In this document: one piece after another, positions 5,979 to 19,585 of the stretch
Layout: each line of letters opens with the position of its first letter
Numbering within the stretch: position 1 is the first letter of the stretch
Assembly: GCA_007375785.1 (NCBI GenBank)
Contig: VMEY01000006.1
Coordinates: 1 to 31,749, forward strand
Reading direction: 5' to 3'
Source: Parcubacteria group bacterium Athens0416_74
GTDB lineage: Bacteria > Patescibacteriota > Minisyncoccia > Phycocordibacterales > UBA2100
Length of the DNA: 31,749 nt
The notes under the pieces: model-generated
Told to the model about the DNA's origin: nothing
The model's database searches: none
Seen by the model: only the letters and a program-made list of their open reading frames with translations
Made by a program: the position numbers and the translations under genes

Positions 5979-7332
5979 ATGGCAAATCTGGAGCGGACAA
6001 TGTTTAGAGAGTATGACATTCGAGGTCGCGAAAGCGATACAGAACTCAACGAAACATCGATTTGGCATATCGCGAAAGGATTTGCCCGACTCCTAAACGA
6101 CGCGGGCATTGACTCGGTCATACTCGGCAATGATGCGAGAGGCACATCGGAAGCATTTTCTCGCAGTGCTCTGCAGGCGCTTAGAGAGTCGGGAATACAC
6201 GTCGTCAACATTGGTACCGTGACGACTCCCATGAGTTACTGGGCACAGTATCACCTGAACGTCGCGGGACTCTGCATGATTACCGCGAGTCACAATCCAA
6301 CCGGCTGGAACGGACTCAAACTCGGTACCGGACTATCCAAGACGCTCTTACCGGAAGATATAGAGCGACTCTATAAAATTATCTCCAGCGAGGAATACAT
6401 CGACGGTGACGGCGAAGTGCGGGCTGAAGATATAGGGGCGCAGTACGCGCAAGACTTGATTTCACGGACGAACAGCGCCAGGCCTCTTAAAGTTCTCGTG
6501 AATACCGGCAATGGCACTGCGGGCCTCTTCGTTCCGACTCTGTTGCGTTCAGCCGGATATCAAGTCATCGAACACTACACAGACGTAGATACCAGCTACC
6601 CGCACTACACGGCAAATCCCGACGGCACCGCGATGATGGAAGATACGGGGGCACAGACCGTGGCAAATCATTGCGACATTGGGCTCGCGTTCGACGGAGA
6701 TGGCGACAGACTCGGGGTCGTCGACGAGAAAGGGTCCATCATATGGCCCGATAGGTACATGGCCCTGCTGTCTCGTCTCGTCCTCGCCAAGACGCCCGGC
6801 GCAAAAATCGTGTTTGACGTCAAAGTATCTGAAGCGCTTCCCGAAGATATCGCGGCGCACGGCGGTGTGCCCATTATGTGCAAGACCGGGCACTCGTATA
6901 TCAAATCGAAGCTGCAGGAAGAGCGTGCCGCTCTCGCAGGTGAAATGAGCGGGCATATTTTCTTCGCGGACGGATACTACGGATTCGATGATGCAAGCTT
7001 CGCCGCTCTGAAATTACTCGAGTACCTATCCGGACAGAGCATGAGCCTCTCACAACTCATCGCCGACACACCCACATATATCTCGACGCCGACTATTCAG
7101 GTGCAGACTACCGACGAGGCGAAGTACGAAATCGTGCGCGACATTGTGGCGCAATTTAAGTCTGAGGGACGCCGAAGAAGGTTGGGGCCTAGTTCGTGCG
7201 TCGTCTAATACGCCAACGCTCGTACTGCGATTCGAAGCAAAAACCGAGGAGTCCCTTGAGGCCATCCGGCAGATATTCAAGGCGAAACTCGCGCCGTACG
7301 GACTCACTGATTGGGATTCTTCCGGTCGATAA
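5979..7332 (+). pseudogene. Phosphomannomutase/phosphoglucomutase (alpha-D-phosphohexomutase), frameshifted near 7170
   Basis: FREYDIRG, ITASHNP and FDGDGDR motifs lie in ORF 5979-7208. The C-terminal GWGLVRASSNTPTLVLRFEA lies in another frame (ORF 7144-7332). The intervening DGxRV strand is absent. Confidence 0.85.
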
Positions 7333-9270: not shown

Positions 9271-10594
9271 CTATTTATTGGCCAGCTTCTCAGCAATACC
9301 GATATACGTCTCAGGACGCAGTGCCTTGAGTCGATTCTTTACCGTGCGCGATATATCCAATGAATCTATAAATGCTGCAAAATCTGCGACGCTTACCCTG
9401 CGTCCGCGCGTGAGCTCTTTGAGCTGCTCATAGGGTACAGGTACGCCCTCTCTCCTGAGCGCGGTCTGTATCGCTTCGGCGAGCACTTCCGGATGCGCGC
9501 TGAGCGCTTCGAGCATCGCCGCGAGCTTGGCCCCGGCGAAACACACGCTCCACCGTAGAGTCTGACAAGTCACGCTGCAATCGAGAGATGGGCAACTTGC
9601 GCGAGAAATGTTCGAACAACGCGTTCGCCACTCCGAGGTTACCCTCGGCGTTCTCGAAATCTATCGGATTTACCTTGTGCGGCATGGCAGACGAACCCAC
9701 TTCCCCCGCTTTTGGTTTTTGCGTAATCCAGCCGTCACTGATGTATCTCCACATATCCTGTGAGAGGTCGACAAGAATCGTGTTGATACGGCGCATTGAA
9801 TCAAAAAGTTCCGCATACGTATCGTGCGGCTCTATCTGGGTCGTGACCTCATTGAGCACGAGACGCATCGTATGCTTGGCGCCATCCCTATCGACGTTGA
9901 GTCCCTCTACGAACTTCGCCGCAAAGCTGAGCCAATCCACTTCGGGAGCCGCTATCGTATGCGCATTGTAGTTTCCGGTCGCGCCCCCCCACCTCATCAG
10001 ACGGGAAACTAATACATTCATCTCCTTTCCAAACGTCGTCGGGGATGCGCTCTGCCCGTGTGTACGCGCGAGCATCGGCGTCGCCTTGTGCTTCTTCGTG
10101 AGCGCCTTGAGGGCATCCTCTACACCGGCGATTGATTGAAGAAATACACCTTCCGTAGCATCACGAAGCGCAAAGCCATGCGCAACACTGTTTACATCTT
10201 CGGACGTGAGCGCAAAATGCACCCATTCTGTGACGTCGCGAAGGGAGGTGTCTTTTAATTTTAACTTTATGAAATACTCAATCGACTTCACATCGTGATT
10301 GGTCGCGGGAATCCGCCAACCGGCGGACTCGTACCCCTCCTTTTCTATCGCCTTGATAATGCGCCCGTCTTCGAGTGAGATATCGGACAGCCCGCGAAGA
10401 AGTGCCACTTCACGCTCTGAGAGCCTTCGCACTCCGAGCTTTGGGACTTTCGAGAGCGCTATGAGGTACCCGCACTCCACGCGCACACGATTGCGCATGA
10501 GCGCAAACTCACTGAAGTAGGGTGCCAGAGAAGCAGAAATGTCGCGGTATCGTCCATCAATAGAACTTACCGCCGTGAGACGCTCAAGCGGCAA
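9271..10594 (-). pseudogene. purB: Adenylosuccinate lyase with an in-frame internal deletion and a frameshifting deletion
   Basis: IDGRY, TNHDVK, HFALTSEDVN, RTHGQ and GSSAMPHKVNPIDFENAEG lie in ORF 9428-10672. The C-terminal PEVLAEAIQT..RR.G...PYEQLKELTRG lies in another frame (9271-9573). Probable start is TTG 10594, overlapping the purC stop. Confidence 0.88.
10312..10327. repeat. 16-nt palindromic element inside purB
   Basis: On the - strand: TCCGCC-GGTT-GGCGGA, translated in ESAGWRI. It differs by one base from the copy at 19084-19099. Confidence 0.75.
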
Positions 10595-11516
10595 AAGGTC
10601 TGAGGTTTTTCTCGATACGCGCGACGATGGGCTCTTCCCCCGGCTCAAACGCCTGCCCTGTGATTTGTTCATACATGCGAATATACCTGGCGCTTAGCTC
10701 TGCCACAAGCTCGCTCGGTGCCTCGGGAAGGACGGCGTCTTTGTACGGATCGGAATTCTCCTTAAACCAGAGTCGGAGAAATTCTTTATCAAAGTATTGT
10801 GGCTCCTCTCCTTTCTCGAATCGCTCTTCGTAGGTGTCGAGCTGCCAATACCTCGACGAGTCCGGTGTGTGTATCTCGTCGATAAGTACGAGATTGCCGG
10901 ATTCATCAGTGCCAAACTCATACTTTGTATCGACAAGGATGAGGCCGCGCTTCGCCGCAATCTCCTGGCCGCGCACAAAAAGCGCAGTCGCAGTCGTGCG
11001 TACATTCTCAAAAAGTTCCCGCGTAATGAATCCTTCTGCAATCATTTCCTCGGGTGTGATTGCGCGGTCGTGCGCTTCCTCCTTTGTAGTCGGATCGAAA
11101 ATCGGCTGAGAGAGCTTCTGGTTCTTCTTCATGCCATCCGGGAGCGTCACGCCCCCGAAATCGCGCTGACCCTTGGAATAGCGCGTCCAGATGGATGTAT
11201 CCGTGACACCCGTGTTGTACCCGCGCATTACCGCCTCCACGGGCACCATTTTCATCTTGCGCGCCACGGTCACGTTGGGGTCGGGCACCGCGAGAATCTG
11301 GTTCGGGACGATATCTTTCGTCTCATTAAACCACCAGGCGCTAATCTGGTTGAGCACCTGTCCCTTGTGCGGCACGTGCGCGATGATGCGGTCGAAAGAA
11401 GAGTGCCTATCGGTCGTAATGAGTATGAGCCTCTCATCCTGCTCGTATATATCACGCACCTTGCCCGTCTTCTTCTTCCCCAAAAAATCAAAGTTTGTTT
11501 CTCTTAGAATATCCAT
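10584..11516 (-). CDS. purC: SAICAR synthetase
   Basis: GKVRDIY, TDRHSSFD, KGQVLN, LVDTKYEFG, IDEIHTPDSSRYW, DKEFLRLW. Start ATG 11516 lies 1 nt after the purM stop. Confidence 0.96.
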   Translation of the reverse strand: MDILRETNFDFLGKKKTGKVRDIYEQDERLILITTDRHSSFDRIIAHVPHKGQVLNQISAWWFNETKDIVPNQILAVPDPNVTVARKMKMVPVEAVMRGYNTGVTDTSIWTRYSKGQRDFGGVTLPDGMKKNQKLSQPIFDPTTKEEAHDRAITPEEMIAEGFITRELFENVRTTATALFVRGQEIAAKRGLILVDTKYEFGTDESGNLVLIDEIHTPDSSRYWQLDTYEERFEKGEEPQYFDKEFLRLWFKENSDPYKDAVLPEAPSELVAELSARYIRMYEQITGQAFEPGEEPIVARIEKNLRPFAA

Positions 11517-11517
11517 A

Positions 11518-12660
11518 TCAATCAACGTCAAATGATAATTCCTGCCCGGGCTTCTCTACTCCTTTGCTAGATATTACAACGCGAGGTTCCGCAATTATTT
11601 CCCCTGCGACCTGCGCATCCATTCCATATCGTACTGCCTCTGCGAGTACCTTTTCTGGCTCAGGAGTAATCAGTGCCATCCCTTGTCCCATATTCCATGC
11701 GCGATATGCATCGTAATCCGAAATCGAACCTGTGCGCTGTACATATTGGACAATCTCACCAGGATCAAAAAGATTCTCGAGGCGAGCACCGAGCTTGGCC
11801 CTGCGAAGCACCCGAATCATCTTCTCAGGCACACCTCCGCCCGTGATGTGCGCGACACCATGTATCTCACACGTGCCCTCGGTGTCGAAGCCTCCGTGAA
11901 GCCCTGCCACGAATCGCGAGTAAATTCTCGATGGAGTGAGCGTAAGTTCGCCAAGTGTCGAACCCGCATGCTGTACCGTGTGCCACTCCTCGCCATGCAC
12001 ACTCTTCATGATTTTACGAACGAGTGAAAGGCCATTGCATCGAAAACCTTTTTCCTGCAACATGACCACCGCGTCTCCCGCCTTCATCTCAGTACCCGTC
12101 AATATTTTTTCTTTTCGAGCGACCCAGATGCATGCTGCGCCCCAATGGAATGGAAACTCTCCATATCCAGAAATGAGCGACCCCATCTGCGCTATTTCCC
12201 CGTTGATAACAGCCACATTGGCCTCTTTCGCGGCGGCAATATACCCTTCTCCGAGTTGCCGCATAATGGGTAGAAAATGATCGTCCATACCAACTGATTT
12301 TATGTCGAGGTTCGAACCAACGACGATTGATTCTCCACCGCGAATAAGAGCATCGTCACAAACCATGGCAAAAAGATCGAATGCGATCGTATTGTATCGA
12401 CCGACGCGCTCGGCTATTTCTACCTTCGTCCCGGCTCCATCAAAGCCGAGCGACATAAAACTTCCCTCGGGAAGCTTTGAAATGTTCACCATTTTTAGCC
12501 CTGCAAAATCATCAAACGGCGTGACTATTTCCCCTATACGTCCCGTACGATTCTCGAACGTCTTTTTTGACGCTTCATACATGATGCGCGAAGCTTCCGC
12601 CTCAACATCCACGTCGACTCCAGCGAGCGCGTAAGCGTTTGGCTTTCTCTCCTTTCCCAT
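11518..12660 (-). CDS. purM: AIR synthetase (phosphoribosylformylglycinamidine cyclo-ligase)
   Basis: YALAGVD, DGAGTK, DLFAMVCDD, GEIAQM, LTPSRIY, AHITGGG, WNMGQGM. Start ATG 12660. Confidence 0.93.
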   Translation of the reverse strand: MGKERKPNAYALAGVDVDVEAEASRIMYEASKKTFENRTGRIGEIVTPFDDFAGLKMVNISKLPEGSFMSLGFDGAGTKVEIAERVGRYNTIAFDLFAMVCDDALIRGGESIVVGSNLDIKSVGMDDHFLPIMRQLGEGYIAAAKEANVAVINGEIAQMGSLISGYGEFPFHWGAACIWVARKEKILTGTEMKAGDAVVMLQEKGFRCNGLSLVRKIMKSVHGEEWHTVQHAGSTLGELTLTPSRIYSRFVAGLHGGFDTEGTCEIHGVAHITGGGVPEKMIRVLRRAKLGARLENLFDPGEIVQYVQRTGSISDYDAYRAWNMGQGMALITPEPEKVLAEAVRYGMDAQVAGEIIAEPRVVISSKGVEKPGQELSFDVD

Positions 12661-12661
12661 A

Positions 12662-13189
12662 TTACTTCTGCTCTTCGAGATATGCTTTGTAGCCTTTTTC
12701 TTGAAGCTTTGCGTCTTTTGCGAGCACTTCGGACGACTGCTTTGCTTTGTGTGCTGCGACTTTCTCCGAGACTGACGCGTCGGTGAGCGCCACAATCTGT
12801 GCTGCGAGGACGCCTGCATTCTTGCCGCCATTGAGTCCTACGGTAGCTACAGGGACGCCGGGCGGCATCTGGACAATCGAGAGCACGGCGTCGAGTCCGC
12901 CAAGGGCTGAGCTCGATGACGTGAGCGGTATACCGATGACCGGAAGCGTTGTATGCGCAGCCACGGTGCCGGGTAGTGCGGCGGCCATGCCTGCGCCCGC
13001 AATAAAGACTTTGCATCCTCTCGCCTCGATGTCACGAATCCACTTCACCAAATCCTCCGGTACACGATGCGCAGAGAGGACACGCATTTCACTTGCTACG
13101 CCAAGCTGTTCGAGTACTTTGGCGGACTCCGCCATAAGTGCAAGGTCGCTGTCCGAGCCCATCACAATTCCGACGAGTGCTGTGTTCAT
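12662..13189 (-). CDS. purE: N5-CAIR mutase
   Basis: VGIVMGSDSD, SAHRVPE, AGAGMAAALPG, PVIGIP, SIVQMPPGVPVATV. Confidence 0.96.
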   Translation of the reverse strand: MNTALVGIVMGSDSDLALMAESAKVLEQLGVASEMRVLSAHRVPEDLVKWIRDIEARGCKVFIAGAGMAAALPGTVAAHTTLPVIGIPLTSSSSALGGLDAVLSIVQMPPGVPVATVGLNGGKNAGVLAAQIVALTDASVSEKVAAHKAKQSSEVLAKDAKLQEKGYKAYLEEQK

Positions 13190-13204
13190 AGTGAAAACAG
13201 CATA

Positions 13205-13732
13205 TCAAAGATTTGCGAGTATGAAATCGGCGCGCTCGGAAACCGGCATGACGGGCACTTCGACGATTTCGTAGCCCTGGTCCACGTATGCTTCGCGAAT
13301 CTGGCCGTGGATTATCATCGCCTGCTCCGGGGTCTCGGAGCGTGCCTCATCGGTGCGATAGTCGACAAGGTCGAGAAGAAAGACTTTTCGGTACCGTATC
13401 TCACTCATAGCGCGCACGAAGAACTCGTCGACGGGACGGTTGCTGAGCTTGTAGTACGCGAGACTATCCGGCATGGCTCTGTCAAAAAAGAAAAGTTCGT
13501 CTTTCGGCACCATGCTCTCTTGTGCGTGCGCACGGCGCACGACCGATGGAAGCCAATCAGAATCACCGACAATCTCTTGTATCGTGTGCCCTGCAGCAAG
13601 TTTTTCATCAATAATCAGTCGCGCGGGCTCGGCGAGGACCGGGTGGCCGCGACGTGCCAGCTCGTCTATCGTCGTGGTCTTGCCCGCGCAGGGGCCGCCA
13701 GTCAGTACATACCATGGAGGCGTTGATTCCAT
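13205..13732 (-). CDS. AAA_28/NadR-type P-loop NTPase (nucleotide-kinase-like)
   Basis: YVLTGGPCAGKTT, EPAR, FFDRAMPD, YRKVFLL, YVDQGYEIVEVP. Start ATG 13732 follows TGG-TATGAT by 7 nt. Confidence 0.8.
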   Translation of the reverse strand: MESTPPWYVLTGGPCAGKTTTIDELARRGHPVLAEPARLIIDEKLAAGHTIQEIVGDSDWLPSVVRRAHAQESMVPKDELFFFDRAMPDSLAYYKLSNRPVDEFFVRAMSEIRYRKVFLLDLVDYRTDEARSETPEQAMIIHGQIREAYVDQGYEIVEVPVMPVSERADFILANL

Positions 13733-13751
13733 GTGCGGCATCATACCAGAG

Positions 13752-13783
13752 AGACAACAAGAAGGGCACCTCATCGGTGCCCT
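13752..13783 (-). terminator. Intrinsic terminator after the gmk-like gene
   Basis: Perfect 8-bp stem AGGGCACC/GGTGCCCT (13763-13783), followed on the - strand by a U-rich tract (TCTTGTTGTCT). Confidence 0.7.
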
Positions 13784-13789
13784 CCTGAG

Positions 13790-14377
13790 TCAAACGGAGC
13801 AGTGCAGGAAGTCCCGCGCAGCGGAAAGGGCTCTCTGCTGTGCAATCAGCGGTGTCGGCGCCGAGTTGTCGATTACGAGATCGAAATCTGCGTAATCGTG
13901 CAGGTGCGGCGATACCGGGTCCGTCGACATGAGACGCATCACTTCCGCCTCGTCGATAGTTGGGTCGCGCGCTCTAATGCGCTTCCGTCTCTCCTCCGCA
14001 TCTGCGAAGACGCCGATGGTGAGGGCCAGACCGTTCAATTGCTGTCTCACGATGTCTCGCAAGGTACGAGCGCCGCTCGGCGTTATGTCGATGACGGAGC
14101 CACTTTCAGAGACCAGAAACTGTCCTCTATGTGTCCCCGACCGTTGTGTTTCGCCAATCTTGGCGTGATACACGAACTCTCCGGCCCTAAGCATGGCCTC
14201 AAAGTCCTGCAACGGCACGAAAAAATATTCGCGCCCATGCTGTTCTGACGGCCGTGGAGAACGCGTGGTATGCGGCGCAATTCTGTGCAGCTTTAGCTCA
14301 GAGCAGAGCGCGGTGACGATTGTCTCTTTGCCGGCCCCGCGCGGACCGCTTACGGTCACGAGTCGGATAGCAGGCAT
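13790..14377 (-). CDS. Guanylate-kinase-like protein, divergent
   Basis: SGPRGAGK P-loop and HTTRSPRPSEQHGREYFFV GK motif. The FLEW...YGT motif is altered to FVYH...RSGT. GGGAGG SD upstream. Confidence 0.75.
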   Translation of the reverse strand: MPAIRLVTVSGPRGAGKETIVTALCSELKLHRIAPHTTRSPRPSEQHGREYFFVPLQDFEAMLRAGEFVYHAKIGETQRSGTHRGQFLVSESGSVIDITPSGARTLRDIVRQQLNGLALTIGVFADAEERRKRIRARDPTIDEAEVMRLMSTDPVSPHLHDYADFDLVIDNSAPTPLIAQQRALSAARDFLHCSV

Positions 14378-14426
14378 GGGAGCCTCCCTGTGAATTCACT
14401 GCCGAGACTGTATCAATCCGTTCAGG

Positions 14427-14483
14427 TTATGCAAAGTAGCTCACCGCATTCCTAAACAGCGCAATTCCCGGACCCTCTTCAGG
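14427..14483 (-). repeat. Second copy of the purQ 3' end (PEEGPGIALFRNAVSYFA*)
   Basis: 14442-14480 is identical to 15230-15268 (39 bp). The next 5 codons are a recoded version of the purQ end. Confidence 0.95.
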
Positions 14484-15268
14484 CAAGTGAAGCGTTGAGG
14501 CTGTCATGCTTCTGAAGAAGACGATTCTACCTTGGCCACGAGTGATTGGAATCCCTCACAAACGGCATCGTACTCCGGTAGTGCGAAATGCGCACGCTCG
14601 CCTTGAACAATACGATTCATTTCCCTCAAGATGTGTAACAAAGTTTTTTTGTCGGAGTAAATAAATGGATCAACGTCAACGAGGTAGAGCCCTACATCGC
14701 TGTCCCCAACACGGCCGTATACGTATTGTGCCTCTTTAAAGACGTCGGCAAGAAATGACTGGTTACGTGCGAATTTGTCCTCATAGTACCGCAGGAGATT
14801 CTTTCGCAATTTTGCGAGCGCCGTACCCAGTTCACGGTCATTGATATTCTGCTCTACCGTGACCTTGTCTACGATTGCCAAGACGTCTGCTTTTGCCCTC
14901 GGAGTGTCTTGTTGTTTTTCGGCCACCATAAACGAGACCGGCACATGTATCCCATATTCCGATAACTCGTCAAAATGTTTCTTTGAAATCTGTGCGAAGC
15001 GTGTCGCGTTGATATTTTTCGTTGTTTCCCGTGGTTCAAATCGACTATTCGCTATAAACCACGACCAATTCAACGGCCGCACGATTATATCGTCTCGATT
15101 GGCGAATTTGTGAAGATCAGGATTTTTCTCCGGTGCGAGGTTCGATGCCTCCAGTTCGTGTTTAAACGCTGCAATACGAGGAACCCTTTCCATTCCGTGT
15201 ATGATAGCAAACCGCTACGCGAAATAGTCCACCGCATTCCTAAACAGCGCAATTCCCGGACCCTCTTC
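14442..15268. mobile_element. Single-gene islet integrated in the purQ 3' end (attL/attR-like direct repeats 788 bp apart)
   Basis: A 39-bp identical direct repeat encloses one orphan gene with its own -10 element. No integrase is present in the window. Confidence 0.7.
14504..15193 (-). CDS. Hypothetical protein, possible protein-kinase-like fold
   Basis: 229-aa ORF with TGC-TATCAT 7 nt upstream of the ATG. Motifs ELSEYGIHVP, FLADVFKEAQY and LYLVDVDP. Confidence 0.7.
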   Translation of the reverse strand: MERVPRIAAFKHELEASNLAPEKNPDLHKFANRDDIIVRPLNWSWFIANSRFEPRETTKNINATRFAQISKKHFDELSEYGIHVPVSFMVAEKQQDTPRAKADVLAIVDKVTVEQNINDRELGTALAKLRKNLLRYYEDKFARNQSFLADVFKEAQYVYGRVGDSDVGLYLVDVDPFIYSDKKTLLHILREMNRIVQGERAHFALPEYDAVCEGFQSLVAKVESSSSEA

Positions 15269-15985
15269 CGGTACGGGGGCACCGTCGCGCAGGTATCTCT
15301 CCTTTTCGCATGTCCACTGCGGGAGCTGTGTGAAGCGTATCGCGCGCTCGGGGTGCGGCATGAGGCCAAGAACCCGCCCGTCGTATGCCGTGACACCCGC
15401 GATATTCTCAAGTGCTCCATTGGGATTGCCCGGCAGGTCGAAGTGTTCGCTCATCGGCCCCCTCTCGTACCGAAGCGCTACCGCATCATCCTTTTTTAGC
15501 TGCGCCAGCGTCTTTTGGTCCGCGTAATACTTCCCCTCTCCGTGGGCAATCGGAAGCGAGAGTGACTCAATCCCGCGCAGCCACGGGCTATGTCCTTCGA
15601 CTTTCAAATCCACCCACCGGCAGATGAACCGTGCGGAGTCGTTGGCGATGAGTGCGCCCGGGAGCAGTCCCGCGCTCGTGAGAATCTGAAAGCCGTTGCA
15701 GATACCTATCGCGAGCGTATCTCGCTGCAAGAATGCATCCAACTCTTCTGAGAGGTGCTCCTTTACTCTATTCCCATACGCTTTGCCGGAGCCCGTGTCG
15801 TCACCATATGAAAAGCCTCCCGGGAATGCGAGTACTTGGGATTCCTTGAGCACCGACGGTGTCGCAATGATGTCGTTGATATGGCGTATGTGCGCCTCAG
15901 CCCCCGCAAACTCAAACGCAGCCTTAGTCTCCTCTTCGCAATTGAGTCCGTATCCCGAAAAGATTGTTACTTTTGGTTTTATCAT
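15215..15985 (-). CDS. purQ: FGAM synthase glutaminase subunit
   Basis: GYGLNCEEET, PGGFSYGDD, GICNGFQ, AHGEGKY, NPNG, GLMPHPER. Confidence 0.96.
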   Translation of the reverse strand: MIKPKVTIFSGYGLNCEEETKAAFEFAGAEAHIRHINDIIATPSVLKESQVLAFPGGFSYGDDTGSGKAYGNRVKEHLSEELDAFLQRDTLAIGICNGFQILTSAGLLPGALIANDSARFICRWVDLKVEGHSPWLRGIESLSLPIAHGEGKYYADQKTLAQLKKDDAVALRYERGPMSEHFDLPGNPNGALENIAGVTAYDGRVLGLMPHPERAIRFTQLPQWTCEKERYLRDGAPVPEEGPGIALFRNAVDYFA

Positions 15986-15987
15986 AG

Positions 15988-18957
15988 TTACCAGTCTTTA
16001 AAGGATGCGCGGTATGCAGCGGTGAGTGTACCGAGCGGAATCTTGAGCGTGCTCGAACCCGCGATAAGCGAAAGCTCACTCCCTTTCACCGTACCGATGC
16101 GTGTGCACTTCGCGCCCTTCATCGCCTTTTCAAACTCCGCCTCCATGCCGGCGCGCACGCTTACGAGAACACGACCCTGACTCTCCGAAAAAAGTATCGC
16201 ATCGTCGGATGATGCGTTGCCCGGAAGCTGAGAGAGATCGAGTAGTGCGCCGAGCTGTCCTCCAATTGCCGACTTCGAGAGCGCTACCGCGAGGCCTCCG
16301 CGCCCCACAGAGAGCGCCGACGCGATACAGCCTTTTTGTATCGCATGCTCGAGCGCTCTGTATGCGAGAAGGTTCTTCTTCGTGTGCGTGCGAGGCACGC
16401 CAGTCCCGACGTATGTTTTCTTTGCCTTTTCAGAGAGGAGAGCAAAGTACTCAGAAGCACCGAGTTCGTCGTGCGTCTCACCTATCAGATATATGCGGTC
16501 ACCCTCGGCCTTGAAATCTATTGTCACGGCACGCGAGACATCGTCGATGACACCGATGGCGGAAATCAAAAGGGTTGGCGGTGCGGCGATGTGTATCTTT
16601 TTGCCCTTTGCGTCAAAACCGCGGAAGTCGTTGAACATGCTGTCTTTGCCGGAAATGTACGGCGTACCATACGCGACCGCGGTGTCGTAGACGGCTTTTG
16701 CCGACTCTTTGAGCTCGTACAATCTCTCCGGCGTATTTGAAGAAGACCAGCAGAAATTGTCCAGAACCGCGAGATGCTCAAGCGAGGCACCGGCACACAC
16801 AGCGCTGCGCACTGCTGCATCTATCGAGGCAGCAGCCATCGCATATGTATCGATATCCGAGTACCAAGGGAAAAATCCATGACTGAGCACCACGCCCTTT
16901 TTTGAGTGAGGAAGTGGCTGGATGACACCTGCGTCCGCATTCACTCGCCCCCTACCCTGGAGTGGCTTCGTGACCGACGTGCCCTGCACTTCATGGTCGT
17001 ATTGCTGCGAGATAAACGAAATACTGCCGATATTGGAGCGAGAGAGAAGTGCAAGCAGAGACTTCTCGAGCGGCACGTTTCGAATACTCTTCGGCGGCTC
17101 GATATTCGTATAGACCGGCTTCCGAGTCTTCTGATGTTCGACAGGCCTTCCGTCGTGAAGGAATTCCATGTGCATATCCATAATCGTCTTGCCTTTGTAC
17201 TTCACGACGCACTTCCCCGAGGCGGTAAATTCGCCCACTACGCACGCTTCGACATCGTGTCTGTCGAAAAGTTTCTTTAATTCCTTCCAGTGCTTCTTTG
17301 GCACGGCAAATGTCATACGCTCCTGCGACTCCGAAATCCAAATCTGCCAGGGTGAGAGGCCCGGGTATTTGAGCGGTACTTTCTCGAGATTCACGAGTGC
17401 GCCGCCGCATTCTTTTGCCATCTCCGCGATGGAGCACGAGATACCACCCGCGCCGTTGTCGGTGATACTGGTGTAGAGCGCTCTATCGCGCGCCTCACGC
17501 ACCACCGCATCCGACATTTTCTTTTGCGTAATAGGGTCACCTATCTGCACCGCGGTAGCGGGCGACCCGCTCGCGAGTGCTTCAGAAGAAAATGTTGCGC
17601 CGTGTATGCCATCGAGGCCCACTCTCCCGCCCGCGACAACGATGTAATCTCCCGCTCGCGCTTTTTTCTTGTGAAGTACCCTGCCTGCACTTTTGCGCGG
17701 CAAGAAACCGACTGTACCGGCAAAAACAAGCGGTTTGCCGCGATACCGCGGATCAGTCGCGACAAAGCCGAGCGGCGTCGGTATGCCGCTTTGGTTGCCG
17801 CCCGCATTTACGCCCCTGATAACACCTTCAAGAATGCGGCGAGACGGCAGCAGCGGCTGCTTCTTAGCAGCGTCTCGATACACCGGCACGTCTTTATGAG
17901 GGTCTCCTACGCAATAACCGTACACATTGGCAATCGGTTTTGCTCCGAGCCCAAAACCGAGTGCGTCACGATTCACTCCCACAATGCCGGTAATAGCGCC
18001 GCCAAACGGGTCCAGCGCCGACGGAGAATTATGTGTCTCCACTTTGTGGGTAACAATGTATTCACCGTCGAATGCGATACCGCCCGCGTTGTCGGTAAAT
18101 ACCGAGAGACAAAAGTCTCTCTTTCCCTTTGATTTTCGAATCTTCTGCGTCGCCCCCTTTATGTATCGTTTGTAAATTCCCTCTTTCACTTCATCTATCG
18201 GGTCCGCAAATATGGAGTGCTTGCAATGTTCGGACCACGTCTGGGCCAGTGATTCGAGCTCTATGTCGGTCGGCAACCGCTTGAGCTTCCTGTAGTGCGA
18301 CTGAATCGTCTTCATTGCATTGAGCGAGAGCGCGAGCGGTCCGCGGCGCGTGCCGTCGGGATTGGCGACGCCCTCTTTCCCGATTCGTACAAGCTCGTCG
18401 TCAGAGACATCGAGGCTCACCGCATCGACAGCAACACGCTCGTGCAGATGCACCTGGGGTACCACGATAGGAAGCCCGCGCTTGGCTTGCTTGGCGTCAT
18501 AGATAGAGGCCCGTTCAATGAGCGGATTGTGAAGCTCTCGCGCCATTGCCTCCGCATCACTCCGCGACACTCCATCGAGAAATACAAAGAAGGATGTGTA
18601 CACATCTTCGTCTTTTTTGAGTTTCTTTCCCAGCGCATCCTCGAGCATCTGACGCGCTGTCTTTGCCACATTGTCCGTGACGCCCGGGTGGAAGCCTATT
18701 TCGATGACGAAGGTGTATTTCTTCGGTGCAATCACCCGCGAAGTCGAGTACTCATCGATGAGCGGGTTTGTGAGGCGCCTCGCGAACGTATCGATCTCCT
18801 TCGCTGTGAGCTTTGCGTCGACAGTATACGCTTGTGCGACTGCCACAGACCGAATCTTCGACCCGGGAAAGATGTCCCGGAGCGTGCGGAGGTAGCCGAG
18901 AGCTCGCGCATCTTCGACTTTCGCCGCTACCGTAATCCGCCGAGTCATTGTCCGCAT
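15988..18957 (-). CDS. purL: FGAM synthase synthetase subunit with N-terminal PurS-like domains
   Basis: QTWSEHCKH, DNAG, KVETHNSPS, GGRVGLDGIHGATFSS, DNGAGG, SESQERM, SGKDS, FSESQGR. About 190 extra N-terminal residues. The start may be 18972, 18957 or 18948. Confidence 0.95.
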   Translation of the reverse strand: MRTMTRRITVAAKVEDARALGYLRTLRDIFPGSKIRSVAVAQAYTVDAKLTAKEIDTFARRLTNPLIDEYSTSRVIAPKKYTFVIEIGFHPGVTDNVAKTARQMLEDALGKKLKKDEDVYTSFFVFLDGVSRSDAEAMARELHNPLIERASIYDAKQAKRGLPIVVPQVHLHERVAVDAVSLDVSDDELVRIGKEGVANPDGTRRGPLALSLNAMKTIQSHYRKLKRLPTDIELESLAQTWSEHCKHSIFADPIDEVKEGIYKRYIKGATQKIRKSKGKRDFCLSVFTDNAGGIAFDGEYIVTHKVETHNSPSALDPFGGAITGIVGVNRDALGFGLGAKPIANVYGYCVGDPHKDVPVYRDAAKKQPLLPSRRILEGVIRGVNAGGNQSGIPTPLGFVATDPRYRGKPLVFAGTVGFLPRKSAGRVLHKKKARAGDYIVVAGGRVGLDGIHGATFSSEALASGSPATAVQIGDPITQKKMSDAVVREARDRALYTSITDNGAGGISCSIAEMAKECGGALVNLEKVPLKYPGLSPWQIWISESQERMTFAVPKKHWKELKKLFDRHDVEACVVGEFTASGKCVVKYKGKTIMDMHMEFLHDGRPVEHQKTRKPVYTNIEPPKSIRNVPLEKSLLALLSRSNIGSISFISQQYDHEVQGTSVTKPLQGRGRVNADAGVIQPLPHSKKGVVLSHGFFPWYSDIDTYAMAAASIDAAVRSAVCAGASLEHLAVLDNFCWSSSNTPERLYELKESAKAVYDTAVAYGTPYISGKDSMFNDFRGFDAKGKKIHIAAPPTLLISAIGVIDDVSRAVTIDFKAEGDRIYLIGETHDELGASEYFALLSEKAKKTYVGTGVPRTHTKKNLLAYRALEHAIQKGCIASALSVGRGGLAVALSKSAIGGQLGALLDLSQLPGNASSDDAILFSESQGRVLVSVRAGMEAEFEKAMKGAKCTRIGTVKGSELSLIAGSSTLKIPLGTLTAAYRASFKDW

Positions 18958-18972
18958 GATAGCCTCTGACAC

Positions 18973-19506
18973 CTATCGCGACAAATCGACCCATCGATAC
19001 GCGAGCCCTTCGAATTCTCGATGCTCATCAGAGAGTACGCGGGTGAAATCCTGCTCGTATGCCGGGAAAAATGAGTCCGCCTCTCCGCCAGCCGGCGGAT
19101 TCGCATCAATCAGAGTGAGTTTCAAAATATCAGTATACGGTAGCGCCGCTTCATATATCTGCGCACCGCCCCCGATTGAGACCTGTTCGCTATCGAGTGC
19201 TTTTCCCTTTTCGATTGCTTCTTCTACCGAAGCAACGAACTCCACATTGCCCCATGATGGAGAAACGTTCTCCCTCATCGCGGAGGGGTCGCGTGTAACC
19301 ACGATGTTCTGCCGCCCGGGAAGTGGCTTGCCCAAGTACCCCACGATGGATTCAAATGTCTTTCTGCCGAGAACGATGGGGTGACCCGCCGTGAGCTCTT
19401 TGAATCGGTGTAGGTCATCCGGTATTCGCCAGAGCAATTCGTTGCCTCTCCCGAGCTCGCGGTTGCGCCCAATCGCTGCTATCGCCACGACTTTTGCGCC
19501 TTTCAT
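18973..19506 (-). CDS. folA: Dihydrofolate reductase
   Basis: IAAIG.N..LG..N.LLW.IP.DL..FK, GRKTFESI, LPGRQNIVVTR, IGGGAQIY, DSFFP. Start ATG 19506. Confidence 0.96.
   Translation of the reverse strand: MKGAKVVAIAAIGRNRELGRGNELLWRIPDDLHRFKELTAGHPIVLGRKTFESIVGYLGKPLPGRQNIVVTRDPSAMRENVSPSWGNVEFVASVEEAIEKGKALDSEQVSIGGGAQIYEAALPYTDILKLTLIDANPPAGGEADSFFPAYEQDFTRVLSDEHREFEGLAYRWVDLSR
19084..19099. repeat. 16-nt palindromic element inside folA
   Basis: On the - strand: TCCGCC-GGCT-GGCGGA, translated in NPPAGGE. Confidence 0.75.
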
Positions 19507-19585
19507 ATGAGCGGAATATACCACACCTCATTTCCCCTTTACCTGCAATCCTGCTCTCGTAACCTGGGGGCTATAATGACCGTCC

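Follow-up and report, generated by a model that had tools for sequence, protein, structure and literature searches.

The 31,749-nucleotide contig VMEY01000006.1 of Parcubacteria group bacterium Athens0416_74 (assembly GCA_007375785.1), referred to here in its full length as the window, carries a PurB-like open reading frame (ORF) for adenylosuccinate lyase on the − strand at 9428..10672 and a folA ORF for dihydrofolate reductase (DHFR) on the − strand at 18973..19524, the start of which is probably at 19506. Each of these two genes contains a copy of a 16-nt hairpin repeat, which is the subject of this report. The purB copy (10312..10327) reads TCCGCCGGTTGGCGGA on the − strand; with its flank (GAG-TCCGCCGGTTGGCGGA, 10330-10312) it is translated as ESAGWRI, so that the repeat itself is read as S-A-G-W-R-(I). 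The folA copy (19084..19099, − strand) reads TCCGCCGGCTGGCGGA and, with its flank (GAA-TCCGCCGGCTGGCGGA, 19102-19084), is translated as NPPAGGE, the repeat being read as (N)-P-P-A-G-G. A first-pass annotation of the window had reported two near-identical palindromes in different frames of two unrelated enzymes, and we confirmed the coordinates, the frames and the identity: the 16-mers differ at one loop base (15 of 16 nt identical), and 17 of 19 nt agree once the flank is included. The pattern TCCGCC-N4-GGCGGA has these 2 matches in the window and 0 in 100 dinucleotide shuffles.

In DHFR, the hairpin adds four residues between the strand ending in ..LTLID and the conserved (A/G)D(S/T)FFP motif, and in an alignment with the solved DHFR 3jvx a 4-residue gap falls exactly at PPAG. 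In PurB, it lies within a 7-residue segment, GYEG-IPA, four residues ahead of the conserved TNHDVK motif. Most of the clade has this segment, whereas solved adenylosuccinate lyases do not; in the structure compared, the whole hairpin-bearing segment is missing. The suggestion that the family motif is lengthened at both sites was thus borne out, by four residues each, in comparison with orthologues and solved structures.

A family of about 42 palindromes in one small genome

The window is contig C21 of an assembly (G000) of 795 kb in 94 contigs, with 54% G+C, from a Kaiserbacteria-like organism. Genome-wide, TCCGCC-N4-GGCGGA has 37 strict matches where fewer than 0.1 are expected, and with near copies included we counted about 42 sites, so that the palindrome is far from confined to purB and folA. 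The consensus, TCCGCCAGCTGGCGGA (of the TCCGCC-RGCY-GGCGGA type), is a perfect palindrome with a 6-bp stem and a 4-nt loop. Exact copies number 15 (0.0003 expected), copies with one mismatch also 15 (0.016 expected) and copies with two mismatches 11 (0.34 expected), and matches with three or four mismatches are near expectation. The excess is about 800-fold, the density is one per 20 kb, and sub-words of the 16-mer top the list of over-represented 10- and 12-mers in the genome. Outside the palindromes, half sites stay at background level (CTGGCGGA, 20 versus 19.5 expected), which implies that the whole hairpin is the unit, and a one-sided recognition motif or uptake signal was rejected on the same count. 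No conserved flanks were found around the copies in this genome. The loop variants are nearly all transitions of AGCT, and the arms vary for the most part symmetrically (TTCGCC..GGCGAA in four copies, TCCGTC..GACGGA in three). The predicted stability of the hairpin is −10.2 kcal/mol as RNA and −5.9 kcal/mol as DNA.

When the codons of 709 ORFs were shuffled synonymously, the coding palindromes fell from the 28 observed to a mean of 0.7 and a maximum of 4. Because the palindromes are lost on synonymous shuffling, the signal resides in the DNA and not in the protein, as had been proposed from the two frames in the window. At the protein level, PPAGG is found 16 times versus 0.2 expected. Chance or peptide-driven similarity was rejected as an explanation through the dinucleotide and codon shuffles and the mismatch counts. 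A second over-represented motif, TATCTCA[C/T]GGGGTATA(CT), occurs about 17 times in the genome and resembles a shared promoter or leader element.

Copies lie in housekeeping genes, terminator tips and ribozymes

About 28 of the 42 sites, or about two thirds, lie inside ORFs whose codon usage is coding-like. These ORFs are housekeeping genes, about 25 beyond purB and folA. They encode PurA, a MurD-like ligase, ATP synthase beta, an HhH-GPD glycosylase, CarA, Dus, TsaE, RNase III, PheT, TopA, S2, UvrA, TsaD, a thioredoxin-reductase-like protein, a phosphoribosyltransferase, DnaG, a LexA-like protein, RecJ, L22 (hit twice) and a tRNA-binding protein, in addition to PurB and FolA. The copies are read as xPPAGG (19 copies), as SAGWR, SASWR or SAGRR (8 copies) and, doubtfully, as RQLAE (2 copies), a skew with a chi-square of 15.4 at 2 df by hand calculation.

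Judging from flanks read by eye, eight non-coding copies cap a longer G+C-rich hairpin with a T-run after it. Two further hosts are structured RNAs: a copy in RNase P RNA lies between the 3′ strands of P2 and P4, and one in the glmS ribozyme lies in an expanded helix loop. In the RNase P RNA of another family, the P3 loop is occupied by a copy. We considered a conserved RNA as the master template and rejected it, since the RNase P RNA and glmS copies are themselves insertions at variable positions. The RNase P RNA gene (C88:3480-3951) is 472 nt long versus a model of 367 positions and scores 66 bits, below the Rfam gathering score; the expansions in this RNA and in the glmS ribozyme (C48:6162-6355) include the 16-mer.

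Filled and empty sites in relatives

Among 30 folA orthologues of the genus, 27 are empty and read LID-D(E/S)KE-ADTFFP, and three (those of this genome, G048 and G064) are filled, with the palindrome in the same loop. The three filled genes form no clade in the FolA tree: those of G048 and G064 each have an empty gene as their sister, and strongly supported branches force three separate changes. On this tree, the folA site is one that has been filled independently at least three times in the genus. In a set of 120 database homologues, this place is filled in 10 and empty in about 107. The nearest FolA homologue (P0004, 91% identical) is empty, and its DNA (L083 to L085) aligns with the window at 92% nucleotide identity over 6.8 kb, with a 12-nt gap at the palindrome as the sole indel. 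The empty folA genes include those of relatives at 92 to 95% DNA identity, and contigs of relatives from four sequencing runs bridge the site without the 12 nt. In the comparison with L083, a stretch of about 45 nt on the 5′ side of the folA copy shares the highest divergence of any 60-nt segment. A conversion patch from a filled relative was considered for folA and rejected, as this stretch is, at the protein level, unlike the filled, 76%-identical homologues and no donor was identified.

The occupancy of purB, settled by comparison of protein homologues, was similar. The four residues are absent from all 29 genus orthologues compared, the nearest homologue (P0244, 91% identical) is, like that of FolA, empty, and 3 of 120 homologues are filled; two 80%-identical homologues have the same SAGWR in the same place. 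The net gain in purB is 12 nt. We found a gain of 12 nt also in tsaD, relative to an 80%-identical orthologue, and in purA, relative to relatives at 90% and 87% nucleotide identity; a lexA-like gene has gained 15 nt relative to a relative. A non-coding copy upstream of purA represents a gain of 14 nt relative to L172, and at the same place L174 carries a compensatory variant, TCCACCGTCCGGTGGA. A gain of 12 nt is seen at the intergenic copy C22:797, where the relative has the same terminator-like hairpin but with a plain loop, which implies that the 16-mer landed in the loop.

Taken together, all nine copies compared with relatives (seven coding and two non-coding) are gains of DNA and none is a substitution; the gaps in the orthologues lie exactly at the palindromes, including in relatives at 90 to 95% DNA identity. 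In each of the seven coding copies the added length is divisible by 3 (+12 nt in five, +15 nt in one and +9 nt in one), a check that the first-pass annotation had proposed, whereas the two non-coding gains are +12 and +14 nt. This contrast implies that the frame is kept by selection and not by the element. No direct repeat or target duplication flanks any of the nine filled sites, and the net gain is smaller than the element. The exact ends and the target duplication that had been sought from filled and empty sites were not identified. The net gain is +12 nt for the 16-mer and likewise for a 15-nt variant whose loop has 3 nt, which fits either two 6-nt arms placed around a retained target of 3 to 4 nt or a hairpin that replaces 3 to 4 nt. 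The purB and tsaD copies have rare loops, GGTT and GGCC, that correspond to GGT and GGC codons of the ancestral sequence; overall, by hand count, the ancestral sequence matches the loop at 12 of 24 positions.

The window differs from its relatives in other ways as well. The purB gene here is without about 13 residues that all close homologues carry (SRLMRW|GGATGNYNAH, at about 9997-10000, in frame), and it has a frameshift near 9520-9540, where the contigs of relatives have 78 nt versus 19. At 7172/7173, relatives have 35 extra nt. These differences are either real deletions, with purB decaying, or assembly errors.

Related hairpins and shared insertion sites

A second perfect palindrome, the 18-mer CCTGCCTGCGCAGGCAGG, was seen in 32 of the 61 genus genomes, nearly always with an identical sequence; in this genome it lies at C22:437-454. 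In the PurB of two genomes it is an in-frame insert read LPAQAG, and in the PurB of a third genome a second, decayed copy of CCTGCCTGCGCAGGCAGG sits at the center of the first. We also observed CCTGCCTGCGCAGGCAGG in frame in PurB and PurA of several relatives (L054, L056 and L058; protein P0144). The loop of PurA after EWY has received the 16-mer, the 15-mer (read SAKGG or SAQGG), the 18-mer and other hairpins in different lineages, at least four different inserts in all. In some relatives this PurA loop reads KSAKGGSSSGG, the 15-nt TCCGCC-AAA/CAA-GGCGGA standing beside TCCTCC-N3-GGAGGA (L181, L186 and L190; G011, G069 and G048). Within the 16-mer family of this genome, a nested copy lies at C63:5128. 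New copies centered in older hairpins may reflect either a preference for hairpin loops or a simple tolerance of insertions at these places.

The 18-mer on C22 is at the apex of a larger structure. The region at about 405-590 of that contig is an insertion of about 165 to 190 nt that is absent from the 92%-identical L092 and is present as a single copy in the genome. Its terminal inverted repeats are imperfect and a direct repeat, CATACC, flanks it, in the manner of a miniature inverted-repeat transposable element (MITE); the insertion folds into a long hairpin of −88 kcal/mol. Another palindrome, TGCTTATTCGCGCGAATAAGCA, with longer symmetric flanks, occurs in six loci near folA or purB of relatives (among L002 to L060); it has the look of a conserved operator and not of another hairpin-family member.

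Distribution across the phylum

Counts of the 16-mer range from 0 to 10 per genome elsewhere in the genus, this genome being the richest with 37. Among 251 sampled genomes of the phylum, TCCGCCRGCYGGCGGA was present in 47, from many families, versus a single genome for the reversed control, and the highest copy numbers were 37, 36, 16, 16, 13 and 13. In some of the other genomes the 16-mer is the core of longer repeats, mostly outside long ORFs; in G109, a repeat of about 40 nt is built around it. The presence of an identical sequence at non-orthologous, evidently recent sites in distant families implies that a conserved factor or template is required. In the IMG/VR database, the exact 16-mer was seen in 55 stretches from 52 viral contigs (L255 to L309), one with three copies and two with two; these contigs may be phages of the candidate phyla radiation (CPR) or misassigned CPR fragments. 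We found no publication describing the 16-mer in CPR bacteria or Patescibacteria.

Candidate enzymes

The first-pass annotation had proposed a search for a co-occurring HUH transposase of the REP-associated kind. We identified three such genes in this genome (C1:4977-5888, C57:532-1104 and C80:3518-4189), with HUH and Tyr motifs; their best NCBIfam match is the REP-associated tyrosine transposase (RAYT), at 37 bits versus a cut-off of 80. The genes are there, and their link to the palindrome is weak. None of the three contigs carrying them has a copy of the 16-mer. RAYT-like genes were found in 12 of 25 genomes with at least four copies versus 61 of 225 others (odds ratio 2.5 to 5, p = 0.02 to 0.03). 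In the genus, there are up to 15 RAYT-like Y1 HUH genes per genome of less than 1.1 Mb, which is unusually many.

We also found an intact 84-aa ORF with a single GIY-YIG domain (C54:579-830; Pfam PF01541, 54.8 bits) and, at C44:2235-2467, a YhbQ-like GIY-YIG gene that is frameshifted, lacks the central motif and is adjoined by a tRNA-Gln gene at 2699-2770. YhbQ-like homologues in other families lie directly beside tRNA-Ser or tRNA-Gly genes, and an A-like hairpin is within about 100 nt of this tRNA-adjacent type in 2 of 9 relatives. The GIY-YIG contigs of this genome, C54 and C44, carry no copies. Small GIY-YIG proteins of the Ssn type, defined as single-domain proteins of ≤150 aa in the CDD family cd10448, are single-strand nucleases that go with Ssn-related motifs (NTS/dRS3, SRM) (Chenal et al. 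2025, PMC11893778). The C54 type was present in all 25 genomes with at least four copies versus 120 of 225 others (Fisher p = 5e-7, phylogeny ignored), a link to a GIY-YIG enzyme that is suggestive only. By co-occurrence, then, the best candidate partner would be an Ssn-type small single-domain GIY-YIG nuclease, with a RAYT-like HUH transposase second.

Discussion

On the comparison of filled with empty sites, the 16-mer is a tiny hairpin repeat that arises by insertion, among the smallest insertion-type repeats seen. We favor the reading, with a probability of about 0.6, that it is a GC-rich mini-hairpin repeat family that is spread across the phylum, numbers about 42 copies here after a recent expansion and is copied or recognized in trans as a single-stranded DNA hairpin. 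Alignment with relatives shows the copies compared to be derived gains of DNA, typically of 12 nt, and not products of point mutation, recurring at the same permissive places. Insertions would land widely, and selection would retain frame-preserving ones where the extra residues or an extra helix are tolerated: in surface loops of proteins (as PPAGG, less often as SAGWR), in the apical loops of terminators, in variable helices of RNase P RNA and glmS, and at the centers of older copies. The copies are probably made from, or recognized as, a single-stranded DNA hairpin by a conserved trans-acting factor, because the sequence is identical in distant families, the whole palindrome is what is enriched and the arm variants are symmetric. 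Presence and absence in relatives, recurrence and bursts of copy number all point to mobility. The notion of an ultrashort mobile palindrome thus gains support from the empty sites, the recurrence and the copy number. The coding copies compared do preserve the frame; a restriction to protein loops is too narrow for the family, which also occupies the tips of terminators, RNase P RNA and a glmS ribozyme.

A number of observations weigh against this reading. We found no target-site duplication, defined ends or donor copy, the junctions being blurred by divergence, and the net gains vary (+9, +12, +14 and +15 nt). Stem positions that fall on third codon positions never vary, whereas loop positions do, as might be expected if hairpins were selected in place and not recently copied. 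Mobility is read from comparisons between relatives rather than from polymorphism within a population or from witnessed movement. Neither candidate enzyme tracks the repeat closely. RAYT-like genes are missing from 13 of 26 genomes with at least four copies, including complete ones, and genomes with seven RAYT-like genes have no copies. The C54-type GIY-YIG gene has a copy beside it no more often than chance would give (1 of 12 and 1 of 19 loci) and does not discriminate within the genus, where it is present in four of five zero-copy genomes and absent from the nine-copy G005. The published SRM pattern has 6 matches in this genome (5 to 9 in shuffles), none overlapping a copy.

A bolder reading joins the 16-mer and an Ssn-like GIY-YIG nuclease in a two-part system across the Patescibacteria, in which the nuclease would recognize the single-stranded hairpin, and breaks at hairpin loops or in incoming DNA would be repaired by copying an existing hairpin. 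We regard this as a tentative proposal, doubtful as it stands. If it were true, a non-coding sequence of 12 to 16 nt would be spreading like a homing element and shaping natural transformation; no smaller mobile element would be known, and this one would place peptides in essential proteins and helices in ribozymes.

Other readings differ in what they make of the same observations. The 16-mer could be a selected functional DNA site, for example one that marks incoming single-stranded DNA for recombination or limits its recombination in naturally competent Patescibacteria, an uptake-type signal or the site of a dimeric chromosome-organizing protein, and would then accumulate through an advantage to the cells or lineages that have it rather than through self-copying; a 16-bp palindrome with about 40 copies per genome is similar in size and number to Noc, SlmA and parS-type sites. 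Such selection would fit the identical 16-mer in many families, the invariance of synonymous third-position stem bases beside variable loop bases, and the compensatory arm variant at the same site in L174, and Neisseria offers a parallel in hairpin repeats that, with the Ssn nuclease, modulate transformation (PMC11893778). It accords poorly with nine of nine compared copies being gains of DNA rather than substitutions, with copies that are not conserved at orthologous positions and counts that run from 0 to 37 among related genomes, and with the lack of half-site enrichment or of a pool of partial matches at a density of one per 20 kb; we consider it unlikely. More improbable still is a minimal REP-like element mobilized by the RAYT-like HUH (Y1) transposases of the genome acting on single-stranded DNA hairpins. 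The three RAYT-like genes here and the up to 15 per genome in the genus, an NCBIfam best match that is RAYT itself, the positive co-occurrence in the phylum and the 40-nt repeat around the G109 16-mer speak for it; the match at less than half of the 80-bit cut-off, the RAYT contigs without copies, the mismatched gene distribution described above and the lack of a conserved GTAG-type flank speak against it.

Nor need there be a dedicated enzyme. In errors of replication or repair, a nascent strand could switch by microhomology to an existing copy elsewhere, copy the stable hairpin and return, the hairpin propagating itself as a favored ectopic template. Fuzzy junctions, variable net gains and missing target duplications speak for this, and the readable ancestral sites have a GGY (Gly) codon or GC-rich, element-like sequence, with purB and tsaD loops that match ancestral codons and new copies in the loops of existing hairpins. 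Template switching leaves unexplained the exact sequence common to distant families, many of which have none, and a match of ancestral 4-mers to the loop at half of the positions is a modest one; we hold it, like the REP-like element, to be improbable. Chance, a recurrent peptide motif or an artefact of assembly or library can be set aside almost entirely. The assembly is fragmentary, in 94 contigs, and has odd short deletions in several genes, yet the 800-fold excess is removed by codon shuffling, and the copies occur in three reading frames, which stay open, as well as in non-coding contexts. An assembly or library artefact was also rejected on finding the same 16-mer in dozens of independent assemblies, including single-contig genomes, with in-frame copies in many independent, complete ones.

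The Patescibacteria have the most reduced and constrained bacterial genomes, and yet a non-coding 16-nt hairpin repeatedly lengthens RNase P RNA, a glmS ribozyme and proteins such as DHFR, adenylosuccinate lyase and synthetase, TsaD, ATP synthase beta, topoisomerase I and ribosomal proteins. The known size limit of insertion-type repeats becomes about 10-fold lower than with the Rickettsia palindromic elements (RPEs), and the identical sequence throughout the phylum calls for a conserved mechanism of recognition or copying. The 16-mer provides a concrete sequence with which to probe orphan small GIY-YIG and RAYT-like proteins for an activity on single-stranded DNA that is hairpin-specific, and a natural marker of very recent strain divergence. 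For annotators and structure predictors, PPAGG and SAGWR loops in these proteins are driven by DNA and are not functional motifs.

Comparison with known repeats

The RPEs, reportedly about 100 to 150 bp long and adding 30 to 50 residues (Ogata et al. 2000), are close in habit. Like them, the 16-mer is a repeated palindrome that stands in frame in unrelated, often essential genes and in RNA genes, supplies a tolerated surface peptide and encodes no transposase. It differs in measuring 15 to 16 nt and adding 4 to 5 residues, in being a perfect palindrome and in recurring base for base throughout a phylum rather than within one genus. REP and REPIN sequences are extragenic, imperfect and 20 to 40 nt long, with a terminal GTAG tetranucleotide and a flanking RAYT gene. 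They share with the 16-mer the character of a short GC-rich hairpin, thought to be handled as single-stranded DNA by a trans-encoded Y1 HUH protein, and RAYT-like genes are present here; the 16-mer, in contrast, is two thirds intragenic, is a perfect 16-mer without a conserved tetranucleotide and does not flank a RAYT gene.

The GC clusters of yeast mitochondria and the PstI palindromes of Neurospora mitochondria are dispersed, GC-rich repeats of 18 to 45 nt. They too are very short, populate compact genomes, include in-frame copies and have no known dedicated transposase, but they belong to fungal organelles, have different sequences and in some cases have a defined target duplication. HIP1, USS and DUS sequences, of 8 to 12 nt and at about one per kb, arise by substitution and codon choice and leave the length unchanged. 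The 16-mer resembles them as a short motif over-represented inside genes across a phylum or family, HIP1 being palindromic as well, and departs from them in its gains of 9 to 15 nt, its density of one per 20 kb and its lack of enriched partial matches. From MITEs it is set apart by the lack of a target-site duplication and by a net gain below the length of the element.

The Ssn-related motifs are found with an oriented 5′ flank in the published SRM search pattern (HGTCWY...) and flank the ssn gene in 71% of homologues (PMC11893778). Like them, the 16-mer is a many-copy hairpin repeat with lineage-specific expansions, and all 25 genomes with at least four copies also encode a small GIY-YIG protein of a single domain; it is enriched in small-genome symbionts, a feature that the authors of PMC11893778 remark on. 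Unlike them, it has no oriented flank, leaves the search pattern unmatched, is not adjacent to a GIY-YIG gene and is two thirds intragenic. The element works like RPE, REP or Ssn-type repeats and yet fails the defining features of each.

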